A program made the position numbers and the translations under genes. A stretch of DNA of 64,000 nt from an uncultured Bacteriovoracaceae bacterium (GTDB lineage Bacteria > Desulfobacterota > Desulfomonilia > UBA1062), in assembly GCA_964400685.1 (NCBI GenBank), contig CAYNVT010000004.1, positions 606 through 64,605 of the forward strand, in the 5' to 3' direction. Below are positions 36,500-38,543 of this stretch, one piece after another (positions within the stretch are counted from its first letter, which is position 1; the number at the start of each line of letters is the position of its first letter). The notes under the pieces were generated by a model that ran no database searches, was not told where the DNA came from, and saw nothing but the letters and a program-made list of their open reading frames with translations.

Positions 36500-37617
36500 A
36501 CGAATTCATTCCCATGAGCAGGCCTTTCATAGGCGAAGAAGAAATCGAAGAAGTGACAAAGGTTCTGAGAAGCGGCTGGATTACGACCGGTCCCAAGTGC
36601 AAGGAATTTGAAGAAATATACGCCACTCTTACAGGCGCGAAAGTCGGAATCGCCCTTGTCTCGGCAACTGCAGGGATGCACCTTACGCTCAAAGCCCTCG
36701 GGATAGGCGCAGGCGACGAGGTCATCACGCCTTCCATGACGTTCGCTTCCACTGTAAACCAGATAGCACTGGCAGGTGCTAAGCCGGTTTTTGCAGACTG
36801 CGACTATGACACGCTGATGGTCAAACCCGAAGATATCGCACGCCTGATAACTAAAAAGACAAAAGCGATAATCCCGGTGCATTTTGCAGGAGCGCCTGCG
36901 GATATGGCTGCAATCGAGACCGCAGCAGGAGACATTCCAGTTATTGAGGACGCGGCCCATGCCATAGACACCCATTACAAAGGCAGGCATATAGGTTCTA
37001 AAAATCTGGCGATCTTTTCTTTCCACCCGATCAAGAACATAACGACTACCGAAGGCGGCATGATAACGGGAAGCGATGAAAAGCTCATGCAGCGCATAAG
37101 GATATTGAGATTCCACGGCATAGAGCGTGATGCATGGAAACGCTACGGCAAAGGTTCCGACCCGAGCTATGATATTATGGAACCCGGCTATAAATACAAC
37201 ATGACTGACGTGCAGGCGGCAATCGGCATTGCCCAGATGAAAAAGCTCGGCATAATAACTAAAAAACGCAGTGAGATTGCAAACGCCTACCTTTCCGGCA
37301 TGAAAGACATCAAGGGCATTGATTTGCCCGGCGTCCCCTCTTATGAACATAAACACTCGTGGCACCTCTTTGTTGTAAAGGTCAACAGCATGAGCCGCGG
37401 CGATTTCATGGCAGCCCTTGCCGAAGAAAACATCGGCTACGGCATTCATTTTCCCGCATGCCATACCCTTAAATACGTCAAAGAAATGTTCGGCGAAACG
37501 AGCCTGCCTGTTACAGAAAATATATCAGAAAAGATCCTCAGCCTGCCGATATATCCTTCCATGACCGATGAAGATGTCATGAGCGTTGTCAGGGCAATAA
37601 AAAGGATACTTGCTTGA
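36496..37617 (+). CDS. arnB: UDP-4-amino-4-deoxy-L-arabinose--oxoglutarate aminotransferase (DegT/ArnB family)
   Basis: PLP-aminotransferase DegT motifs (SGWITTGPK, SFHPIKNITTTEGG with Lys); operon context with arnC/arnA/arnD. Confidence 0.85.
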   Translation: MNEFIPMSRPFIGEEEIEEVTKVLRSGWITTGPKCKEFEEIYATLTGAKVGIALVSATAGMHLTLKALGIGAGDEVITPSMTFASTVNQIALAGAKPVFADCDYDTLMVKPEDIARLITKKTKAIIPVHFAGAPADMAAIETAAGDIPVIEDAAHAIDTHYKGRHIGSKNLAIFSFHPIKNITTTEGGMITGSDEKLMQRIRILRFHGIERDAWKRYGKGSDPSYDIMEPGYKYNMTDVQAAIGIAQMKKLGIITKKRSEIANAYLSGMKDIKGIDLPGVPSYEHKHSWHLFVVKVNSMSRGDFMAALAEENIGYGIHFPACHTLKYVKEMFGETSLPVTENISEKILSLPIYPSMTDEDVMSVVRAIKRILA

Positions 37618-38543
37618 AAAAAGGCCTGATCTTCACAATTATTCTTGCTGCTATTGCATTTACTTCCATAGGCATGTGGGGCGATGTGTTGAAAGCCGGC
37701 AATGAACTCAGGAATTTCCCGTGGTATCTCATACCGCTTATTGCCTTTTTCGGATTCATGAACGACATGATCAAGTTCGGAAGGTGGCATATATATCTTA
37801 AAAAAATGGGGTTTGAAATAACGCTTAAGGAGAGCCTTGTGATATTTGTTTCAGGCCTTTCCATGAGCGCCACTCCGGGCAAGATCGGCCTTCTCATAAA
37901 AAGCCAGATGCTCAAGAAATTATCAGGCCGGTCGTTCATATCATCGACCCCGGTTATTGCGGCCGAGCTTTACATGGATATGATAGCTTTGAGCGTAATA
38001 TCTCTCCTTGCCGTAGGCCTCTTCGCAAAGGGGATGTGGGCCGCAATAATACTGTGCGTACTGCCGCTTCTGGCGTTAAACCAGAAATTTTCAGATTTCT
38101 GCATAGATATTCTCGCAAAGATACCGTCGCTCAAGCACAGGGCCGATGATCTGAAAAAGGCGGTCGATGACATGTTCGGGCTTTTCGGTCTGAGAACATT
38201 AATCGCATCATTTACCATAACGCTTATTGCATGGGCAAGCGAAGGTGTGGCGCTTACACTTATCTTAAACGGCCTCGGTTTTGACATGGGAATATTAAAA
38301 TCAACCGCCATATTCGGCTTTTCCACACTGATAGGCGTTATTTCCATGCTGCCCGGAGGGCTTATAGTTACTGATGCAGGCCTCATGGGACTTATCGTAC
38401 ATGAAGGAGTGGCAACGCAGGCGGCAGGTGTAGCAACCATAATGGCCAGGGTGTTCACCTTGTGGCTTGCAGTCGGCATCGGCAGTATTGTGCTTTTCAT
38501 AAACAGGAAATATATATACGGAAATATCCGGGAGGTCAGCTGA
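37614..38543 (+). CDS. Flippase-like domain membrane protein (UPF0104 / LPG-synthase TM-region family)
   Basis: 8 TM, UPF0104-like N-terminal motif (LIPLIAFFGF...KFGRWHIYLK); embedded between arnB and arnC with 4-nt overlaps. Confidence 0.6.
   Translation: MKKGLIFTIILAAIAFTSIGMWGDVLKAGNELRNFPWYLIPLIAFFGFMNDMIKFGRWHIYLKKMGFEITLKESLVIFVSGLSMSATPGKIGLLIKSQMLKKLSGRSFISSTPVIAAELYMDMIALSVISLLAVGLFAKGMWAAIILCVLPLLALNQKFSDFCIDILAKIPSLKHRADDLKKAVDDMFGLFGLRTLIASFTITLIAWASEGVALTLILNGLGFDMGILKSTAIFGFSTLIGVISMLPGGLIVTDAGLMGLIVHEGVATQAAGVATIMARVFTLWLAVGIGSIVLFINRKYIYGNIREVS

Follow-up and report, generated by a model that had tools for sequence, protein, structure and literature searches.

How does an arn operon that contains neither arnE nor arnF move its lipid-linked sugar across the cytoplasmic membrane? 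The question is raised by a gene cluster on contig CAYNVT010000004.1 of an uncultured bacterium (assembly GCA_964400685.1), of which a stretch of 64,000 nucleotides (positions 606 to 64,605 of the forward strand) was analyzed; this whole stretch is called the window hereafter, and coordinates refer to it unless another locus is named. Between the genes for the aminotransferase ArnB and the glycosyltransferase ArnC, the cluster carries an open reading frame (ORF) that we term X (37614-38543, plus strand, TTG start, 309 amino acids). The transfer of undecaprenyl-phosphate-linked 4-amino-4-deoxy-L-arabinose (Und-P-Ara4N) from the cytoplasmic to the periplasmic side is the only step of the Escherichia coli pathway for which this operon holds no assigned protein. 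We propose that X is probably the lipid-carrier translocase of the L-Ara4N lipid A modification pathway, acting in place of ArnE/ArnF. A preliminary description of this DNA, made from the letters alone, had suggested such a non-orthologous replacement for the Und-P-L-Ara4N flippase, and the proposal is well supported by context, as family and fold, co-occurrence with arn genes, mutual exclusion with ArnE/F and a second PF03706 lineage in other arn operons all agree with it.

Flipping is the least understood step of the Ara4N pathway, which underlies resistance to polymyxins and cationic peptides, and direct evidence for flippases of polyprenyl-phosphate sugars is scarce in general.

Operon architecture

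The genes follow the order ArnT-like (two tandem copies), ArnB, X, ArnC, ArnA formyltransferase half (ArnA-FT), ArnA dehydrogenase half (ArnA-DH) and ArnD, and the Pfam and NCBIfam assignments agree with this order as it had first been read (Table 1). All six enzymatic Ara4N functions are encoded, both ArnA halves score above their NCBIfam cut-offs, the ArnC of the window is 53% identical to that of E. coli, and the genes that follow ArnD are convergent to the operon. With a family 2 glycosyltransferase (GT2, ArnC), two ArnT-like glycosyltransferases of the GT-C type and X in the flippase slot, the operon holds a three-component set for periplasmic glycosylation.

X is packed closely between its neighbors. 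Its start codon overlaps the stop codon of ArnB by 4 nucleotides (nt; cTTGA), an arrangement of translational coupling, and its TGA stop, which ends at 38543, is separated by a 1-nt spacer (TGA-A-GTG) from the GTG start of ArnC at 38545, upstream of which lies a GGGAGG ribosome-binding site. Four-nucleotide overlaps had been described on both sides of X; the upstream one stands, and the downstream one gives way to this single-nucleotide spacer.

The operon contains two non-coding spacers of about 155 nt, one between ArnC and ArnA-FT (39481-39633) and one between ArnA-DH and ArnD (41577-41735). Among the loci recovered for comparison, which are numbered with the prefix L, the former spacer is kept in L001 and missing in L002, where the ArnC and ArnA-FT genes overlap. 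Rfam and promoter/terminator scans of the operon returned nothing informative.

Family, fold and selection of X

The assignment of 37614-38543 to a gene of the UPF0104/LPG-synthase-TM type was borne out by profile searches. PF03706 (LPG_synthase_TM) matched residues 12-290 with an E value of 2.8e-32 and 112.8 bits (cut-off 33.4), X aligning to profile positions 4-302 of 302, and TIGR00374 ('flippase-like domain-containing protein', the NCBI name that X-like proteins already carry) reached 64.7 bits (cut-off 43.2). The model of bifunctional MprF, NF033480, gave 26.4 bits (cut-off 600) and covered only model positions 13-297 of 841; PF03706 is the sole domain on X, and the aminoacyl-phosphatidylglycerol synthase domain of bifunctional MprF is missing.

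An AlphaFold2 model of X, computed from an alignment of 26 orthologues (mean pLDDT 78, pTM 0.78), has about six long helices and two helical hairpins and is consistent with the eight transmembrane (TM) segments proposed earlier. When the model was compared with the Protein Data Bank (PDB) by Foldseek, the best six matches were all MprF, from Pseudomonas aeruginosa, Rhizobium tropici and R. etli (probability 1.00, TMq 0.58-0.65), with flippase domains 14-17% identical to X; the seventh match had an E value of 0.12, and everything past the top six exceeded 0.1. The fold of the model is that of the N-terminal transport domain of MprF, a helical bundle with two helical hairpins. Sequence (PF03706/TIGR00374) and fold (the six leading Foldseek matches) thus both place X in the MprF flippase-domain family. 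A broader alignment comprising X, its orthologues and out-group relatives (A3) was matched to E. coli YbhN by hhalign with a probability of 91% and 15% identity. X is a remote, stand-alone PF03706 protein, neither an MprF nor an ArnE/F, and it plausibly works like the latter.

Compared with its two closest orthologues, X has dN/dS ratios of 0.060 and 0.067, in the same range as ArnB (0.057-0.077) and ArnC (0.051), and it is therefore a real gene under purifying selection and not a chance ORF.

Distribution of X among arn loci

A search of 5.8 billion proteins with X returned some 47 clusters with at least 50% identity, after which identity fell to 35% or less, and when one genome per species was scanned, 28 loci were recovered. 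The survey of phylogenetic co-occurrence that the preliminary description had called for came out in favor of its proposal: orthologues of X (38-95% identity) were found within arn clusters in all 23 other loci recovered, never alongside ArnE/F. These loci represent at least four distant lineages, namely metagenome-assembled genomes (MAGs) of Desulfomonilia, Syntrophaceae and other 'Deltaproteobacteria', an Omnitrophota MAG, Candidatus Scalindua and Desulfurella. Throughout L001-L018, X (44-94% identical) directly follows ArnB, and ArnC comes next wherever the locus is long enough, except in the rearranged L006, where ArnB and X stand together inside the cluster and ArnC lies 8 kb upstream. 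Four Desulfurella genomes (X 38-39% identical) have the order ArnT-X-ArnC-FT-DH-ArnD. Since the neighbors of X vary in this way (ArnB-X-ArnC, ArnT-X-ArnC and the arrangement of L006), its tie is to the pathway and not to one gene.

The start of X overlaps the stop of the upstream gene by NTGA (TTGA, GTGA or ATGA) in 20 of 20 orthologous loci examined, and its identity tracks that of ArnC across loci (Spearman 0.84). The arn-linked clade amounts to three of 1.84 billion representatives at 50% identity (P0046, P0121 from Scalindua and the Desulfurella-type P0122), beyond which weaker matches form a continuum. Among the best 150 representatives, nearly all of which are 300-400 amino acids long, no clear Rosetta-stone fusion of the ArnC-X or X-ArnT kind was found.

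The complete genome of the cultured Desulfurella acetivorans A63 carries ArnT-X-ArnC-FT-DH-ArnD-LptF/G, preceded by a divergent gene for the lipid A deacylase PagL, and its ArnT has an Arnt_C domain. Judged by its gene content, this cluster provides the best evidence that lipid A would be the target.

Several features of the X-bearing loci may be recorded here. At least two ArnT paralogues are present in most of them, and five tandem ArnT-like GT-C genes lie upstream of ArnB-X-ArnC in L004 (64-8685); multiple paralogues may indicate several acceptors for one donor. Genes for PEMT/ICMT-like membrane methyltransferases are located upstream of the ArnT genes in L003 (124-696) and L018 (1403-2179). 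The taxon names of the loci call for caution, as some record titles (e.g., L001 and L017) are at odds with the sequence relatives: L001 is titled 'Bacteriovoracaceae', although the arn proteins of L001 and of the window match at 89-96% identity, and L028 carries the title 'Chloroflexota', although a Nitrosopelagicus locus encodes a PF03706 protein with 84% identity to its own.

Mutual exclusion of X and ArnE/ArnF

Absence of ArnE/ArnF proteins of the small multidrug resistance (SMR) type, noted from the outset, holds for the 64-kb window. A hidden Markov model (HMM) of the ArnE/F family, seeded with ArnE and ArnF of E. coli and iterated through every ORF of 60 amino acids or more in the window and 109 fetched loci, converged on 41 ORFs in 27 other arn loci; it matched no ORF in the window or in any X-bearing locus, and X itself was unmatched. 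In a hydropathy screen of the window, a single small multi-TM ORF could be assigned to a family, a MauE/DoxX protein (20479-20922, minus strand). Another flippase candidate, the multi-TM ORF of 224 amino acids at 30934-31608, was rejected: it has no family match, lies in a stretch of low GC content and, in the same scan for small multi-TM ORFs, had no counterpart flagged in the other X-bearing loci.

Metagenome contigs were scanned with an ArnC alignment and the best 80 loci kept, which together with the genome loci gave 101 loci with ArnC. X is present in 22 of them and ArnE/F-family genes in 27, and none has both (Fisher p = 6.6e-4). When the comparison is confined to complete clusters, defined by the presence of ArnT, ArnB, ArnC, ArnA-DH and ArnD together (n = 36), 12 have X only, 15 have ArnE/F only, nine have neither and none has both; ArnE/F genes thus occur in 0/12 complete clusters with X versus 15/24 without it (Fisher p = 2.6e-4). 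Both p-values are descriptive only, because the loci are neither independent nor evenly sampled.

The class with neither gene is heterogeneous: L066 has a second PF03706 lineage, described below, and L095 represents an ArnE/F-bearing type in truncated form. A DedA/VTT-domain gene lies within the cluster of L049 (7631-8812), which also belongs to this class. In L016, a set of the composition GT2-DedA-GT-C-DedA (14725-18393) stands right after the X-bearing arn operon, which suggests a separate carrier-lipid transporter for each system there.

A second PF03706 lineage in Phycisphaerae arn operons

In L066, a PF03706 gene (E value 4e-28) is the first gene of the operon and overlaps ArnB; its start is the ATG at 7660, downstream of a terminator-like hairpin. 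The encoded protein gave a BLASTP E value of 0.35 against X and was not detected by the HMM of X, and hhalign of the two orthogroups yielded a probability of 0.7%. Membership in the same Pfam family is the only relation between the two that could be detected. About 58 clusters annotated as Phycisphaerae or Phycisphaerales make up the L066-type orthogroup. Three more members (50-68% identical to the L066 protein) were recovered, all in PF03706-ArnB-ArnC-ArnA(fused)-ArnD(-ArnT) operons without ArnE/F, and in two of the three the gene overlaps ArnB by 4 nt.

Within the clade of X, the proteins are 38-44% identical where the accompanying ArnC proteins are 57-61% identical, and the ArnC of L066 is 53% identical to that of the window. 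We favor the view, drawn from these sequence comparisons, that PF03706 entered arn operons twice independently, because a single ancient recruitment would need an implausibly fast divergence of X alone.

Non-arn relatives and clade-specific residues

The nearest relatives outside arn operons are 28-35% identical to X and 28-45% to one another. A SpoIID-Maf-PF03706-B12-binding neighborhood was seen three times among them; other members stand beside HPPK or transketolase, after BacA (one lineage) or in other GT2/GT-C sets, and the context of the stand-alone PF03706 gene in E. coli is clsB-ybhN. Adjacency of Maf and PF03706 was recorded in L110 (4007-7405), L114 (2633-4198) and L118 (3449-6412), with the order SpoIID-Maf-PF03706-B12-binding domain in L110 and L118. 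In L023 (8154-9969) and L024 (5417-7352), the PF03706 gene begins about 35 nt after that of the undecaprenyl-pyrophosphate phosphatase BacA/UppP, an adjacency that hints at a role in carrier-lipid recycling. As a general tie of the family to Und-P metabolism this adjacency was rejected, the two loci being one lineage (87% identical) and five other out-group contexts being without BacA.

An alignment of 52 arn-clade sequences with 209 non-arn relatives revealed residues by which the two groups differ. At position 93, Glu is found in 99% of the out-group and Leu, Phe or Met in the arn clade; at position 119, the corresponding residues are Arg (99%) and Leu or Ile; at position 51, Tyr (92%) and Asp (100%); at position 54, Arg (98%) and Lys (100%); and at position 254, Glu (91%) and Asp (92%). 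That the charges at 93 and 119 are lost together suggests, as far as an alignment can tell, that an ion pair has disappeared from the N-terminal half. Much of the signature of stand-alone PF03706 proteins (TPGK-G-E, AER-TD, W..E, PGG...E and an R in the last helix) is kept in X, namely T87, P88, G89, K90, G92, E118, D122, W207, E210, P247, G248, G249 and R279, and W58, the TPGK-G motif, D122, W207, E210, PGG and R279 are invariant through the arn clade. The D254/R279 pair is also kept in the arn clade and, matched by numbering, may correspond to the salt bridge E295-R319 of P. aeruginosa MprF (PaMprF; PMC11980842).

Proposed mechanism and alternative explanations

The transport domain of P. 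aeruginosa MprF has been described as a promiscuous, energy-independent scramblase of many lipids, whose substrate preference was proposed to come from the attached enzyme (PMC11980842). By analogy, X would probably be an energy-independent, scramblase-like facilitator that equilibrates Und-P-Ara4N between the leaflets. In the pathway envisaged, the ArnA dehydrogenase, ArnB and the ArnA formyltransferase would produce UDP-linked 4-deoxy-4-formamido-L-arabinose (Ara4FN), ArnC would place Ara4FN on undecaprenyl phosphate at the cytoplasmic face and ArnD would then deformylate it; X would bring the resulting Und-P-alpha-L-Ara4N to the periplasmic leaflet, where the ArnT-like GT-C enzymes would attach the sugar to its acceptor, lipid A or a different component of the envelope. 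Net outward flux would arise as ArnT uses up the donor, and X could also return free Und-P. Substrate and direction of transport, like lipid A as the acceptor, are here what we infer from the composition of the operon.

Several observations weigh against this proposal. The ArnB, ArnC, ArnD and ArnT-like proteins fall below the NCBIfam equivalog cut-offs, although the Arn models are their best full-length NCBIfam matches; the exact sugar and acceptor are for this reason putative, and lipid A is a presumed acceptor because the ArnT-like proteins are below the ArnT cut-off. The absence of arnE/F is limited to the 64-kb window and about 20 kb around each orthologue. The nine complete arn clusters with neither X nor ArnE/F imply that operon-encoded ArnE/F is not obligatory and is dispensable in some lineages, and in L031, which has an ArnC of 74% identity, no gene separates ArnB from ArnC (2594-4732; a spacer of 55 nt, and neither X nor ArnE/F on the 10.7-kb contig). 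Neither profile of X, A1 or the wider A3, reached the MprF chains in the PDB by sequence, and the profile of a distant family member, P0111, likewise gave no MprF match among the PDB sequences; it was the fold search alone that tied X to the MprF structures, and because the profiles gave no MprF match, X cannot be mapped onto those structures residue by residue. Finally, the Glu/Arg pair at positions 93 and 119, 99% conserved in the nearest relatives, is lost in the X clade, which could mean an altered or even a non-transport function.

An unlikely alternative is that X acts only in the recycling of Und-P from the periplasmic to the cytoplasmic leaflet, like DedA/UptA and DUF368/PopT, with the forward flip carried out by another protein. 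Such a role would be in line with the PF03706 gene directly after BacA/UppP in L023 and L024, with the DedA/VTT genes inside or beside some arn clusters (L049, L016) and with reports on Burkholderia and Klebsiella that modification by Ara4N and resistance to colistin require DedA proteins; furthermore, MprF and DedA domains have been described with a common hairpin motif and as interchangeable in fusions (PMC11980842). However, L023 and L024 are a single close out-group lineage while other out-group members are not beside BacA, the strict exclusion of ArnE/F is left unexplained, and the presence of both X and DedA genes in L016 fits separate jobs better than redundancy. Recycling also overlaps with the translocase function proposed here, since a promiscuous scramblase would do both jobs. 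It is quite unlikely, in our estimation, that X scrambles glycerophospholipids in the manner of YbhN/PplT, serving inner-membrane lipid asymmetry during envelope remodeling or the flipping of an Ara4N-phospholipid, and is co-regulated with arn without handling the polyprenyl donor. All experimentally studied members of the family do act on glycerophospholipids (MprF, and YbhN by interaction and context data), GpgF has been linked to glucosaminyl-phosphatidylglycerol, and the 91% hhalign match of A3 is to YbhN itself. Yet that role is already filled by out-group relatives in housekeeping contexts, the distinctive substitutions occur only in the small arn clade, the operon encodes no phospholipid-modifying enzyme, and neither the exclusion of ArnE/F nor a second independent PF03706 lineage would be predicted.

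We regard as very improbable that X is a membrane partner without transport activity, i.e., a scaffold or activator for ArnC, ArnD or ArnT comparable to the small activator subunits of other Und-P glycosyltransferases. The translational coupling of X to ArnB, its abutment on ArnC and the loss of the Glu93/Arg119 pair from the arn clade agree with such a function, and mutation of E295/R319 in PaMprF did not reduce transport, so that these residues may be structural (PMC11980842), although by numbering they appear equivalent to D254/R279 of X and not to the lost 93/119 pair. Against a partner role, the full flippase fold is kept, TPGK, W58, W207/E210, PGG...D254 and R279 are invariant under strong purifying selection, and the exclusion of ArnE/F is not predicted; E. 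coli ArnC, ArnD and ArnT, as is generally known of the pathway, need no such partner.

The translocase function of X can be extended to a wider reading that we put forward tentatively, as possible and a little short of probable: MprF-type PF03706 domains would serve in bacteria as translocases of polyprenyl-phosphate sugars and would have displaced ArnE/ArnF at least twice independently, in a Desulfomonilia/Syntrophia-Desulfurella-Scalindua clade and in Phycisphaerae, the first of these having remodeled the Glu/Arg pair and gained Asp51 for a cationic Und-P-amino sugar.

Genomic surroundings of the operon

A third ArnT-like GT-C gene upstream of the operon is 37% identical to ArnT-like 1, and proximity and homology would tie it to the operon. 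It is directly followed by genes for an OmpR-type response regulator and a HAMP/HisKA histidine kinase (Table 1), a two-component pair that is possibly a PmrAB-like regulator of envelope modification. Between this pair and ArnT-like 1 lies a low-GC stretch (29000-33300; 38.5% GC at 30-32 kb vs about 47-49% elsewhere) with genes for a DUF6036 nucleotidyltransferase, a MarR regulator and a 4Fe-4S protein as well as two ORFs without a family, the above-mentioned multi-TM ORF of 224 amino acids and one of 280 amino acids (32084-32926); the corresponding interval in L001 is shorter by about 2.3 kb. On the minus strand, immediately downstream of ArnD and convergent to it, a region at 42608-47027 holds a gene for a DnaG-like primase (CHC2 zinc finger and Toprim, 43609-44670) and neighboring ORFs and may be part of a mobile element.

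Table 1. Coordinates of the arn operon, of associated genes in the window and of the Phycisphaerae-type PF03706 genes in other loci
Feature	Location	Strand	Profile matches and remarks
ArnT-like GT-C glycosyltransferase 1 (PMT_2/PMT)	33333..34928	+	PF13231 3.7e-19; NF009784 157.8 bits (cut-off 567)
ArnT-like GT-C glycosyltransferase 2, tandem paralogue	34931..36499	+	PF13231 5.9e-15; NF009784 75.5 bits (cut-off 567)
ArnB-like UDP-4-amino-4-deoxy-L-arabinose aminotransferase	36496..37617	+	PF01041 8.6e-120; NF008658 489 bits (cut-off 631)
TTGA, start of X overlapping stop of ArnB	37614..37617	+	4-nt overlap, translational coupling
X, stand-alone MprF-flippase-domain protein, candidate Und-P-Ara4N translocase	37614..38543	+	PF03706, TIGR00374
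ArnC-like Und-P 4-deoxy-4-formamido-L-arabinose transferase (GT2)	38545..39480	+	PF00535 8.7e-34; NF007986 402 bits (cut-off 529)
ArnA formyltransferase half, separate gene	39634..40557	+	NF005414 391.8 bits (cut-off 316); ArnA model NF005998 positions 1-276
ArnA dehydrogenase/decarboxylase half (UDP-4-keto-pentose synthase)	40554..41576	+	NF008872 563.6 bits (cut-off 294); NF005998 positions 317-649
ArnD-like Und-P-Ara4FN deformylase, last operon gene	41736..42590	+	NF011923 163.8 bits (cut-off 382); PF01522
Third ArnT-like GT-C gene	25156..26784	+	PF13231 4.7e-16, PF02366 3e-13
OmpR-type response regulator	26788..27456	+	
HAMP/HisKA histidine kinase	27449..28852	+	
Phycisphaerae-type PF03706 gene, L066	7660-8790		
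Phycisphaerae-type PF03706 gene, L119	4642-5772		
Phycisphaerae-type PF03706 gene, L120	9001-10218		
Phycisphaerae-type PF03706 gene, L121	9001-10200		

Implications

If X does the flipping, the translocase module of arn systems would be interchangeable among ArnE/F, two PF03706 lineages and possibly DedA, and MprF-type domains would act on polyprenyl carriers besides phospholipids, as has been predicted for archaea since 2015. Should the wider reading of these domains as polyprenyl-phosphate-sugar translocases hold, the substrate range of the only structurally characterized dedicated bacterial lipid scramblase would widen from glycerophospholipids to lipid carriers. The loss of Glu93 and Arg119 in the arn clade moreover offers concrete residues for the study of substrate selectivity in this family, about whose transport route there is still debate.

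Comparison with known systems

The closest functional counterparts are ArnE and ArnF (PmrL/PmrM) of E. coli and Salmonella, which like X are encoded in the arn operon, X being found at the only step without another candidate. They are, however, two proteins of about 110-130 amino acids of the drug/metabolite transporter (DMT)/SMR type with four TM helices each, whereas X is a single MprF-type domain of 309 amino acids that is unrelated to them in sequence. With MprF (PDB 7DUW, 6LVF, 9GOE and 9J8Q), X has PF03706 and the fold in common, and both pathways add a cationic group to an envelope lipid and lower the surface charge; the substrate of MprF is a glycerophospholipid and that of X would be a polyprenyl-phosphate amino sugar, and X has no synthase domain. 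YbhN/PplT and other stand-alone proteins of COG0392 are single-domain proteins of similar length to X, but these relatives are encoded in housekeeping contexts and keep Tyr51, Glu93 and Arg119, in place of which the arn clade has Asp, Leu/Phe/Met and Leu/Ile.

Another stand-alone COG0392 protein, GpgF of the P. aeruginosa gpgSDF system (analogous to hexSDF of Clostridioides difficile), is a predicted flippase whose operon also specifies a glycosyltransferase and a deacetylase, the two enzymes behind a cationic amino-sugar lipid (PMC12713373). The product is a phosphatidylglycerol or diradylglycerol glycolipid formed by a family 4 glycosyltransferase (GT4), with no polyprenyl carrier and no GT-C enzyme, unlike the arn operon. 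The same triad as in the arn operon, a polyprenyl-phosphate GT2, PF03706 and a PMT/STT3-like GT-C, is known from archaea, where PF03706 forms the C-terminal domain of AglD and where the arCOG00899 neighborhoods have this composition; these systems use dolichol phosphate for protein N-glycosylation and their domains are often fused, whereas the operon studied here has separate bacterial genes of the Ara4N pathway in a lipid A/lipopolysaccharide gene context. A bacterial triad was also seen with a distant PF03706 relative (UbiA-PF03706-GT2-GT-C). GtrA and the MATE/Wzx-like ORF14, which are proposed Und-P-sugar flippases, and DedA/UptA occupy the same slot as X between a polyprenyl-phosphate glycosyltransferase and a GT-C enzyme, but they belong to other folds and families, and none is known from an arn operon as an MprF-type domain. 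Members of unrelated families have been reported in the flippase slot of three-component glycosylation systems (PMC11127046).

COG0392 proteins were predicted to be flippases by Makarova, Galperin and Koonin (2015), who described archaeal neighborhoods of AglD-like GT2, PF03706 and PMT/STT3-like GT-C genes (PMC5898192), and the name PplT for the domain, with a list of its fusions to glycosyltransferases, comes from Hauser et al. (bioRxiv 10.1101/2022.03.11.483950). No publication that ties PF03706/YbhN-type proteins to arn operons, or to a lack of arnE/F, turned up in the literature we searched. While PF03706 as a flippase in glycosylation has already been predicted, what is new here is an arn operon with a candidate translocase module of the MprF type, which occurs in two unrelated versions.

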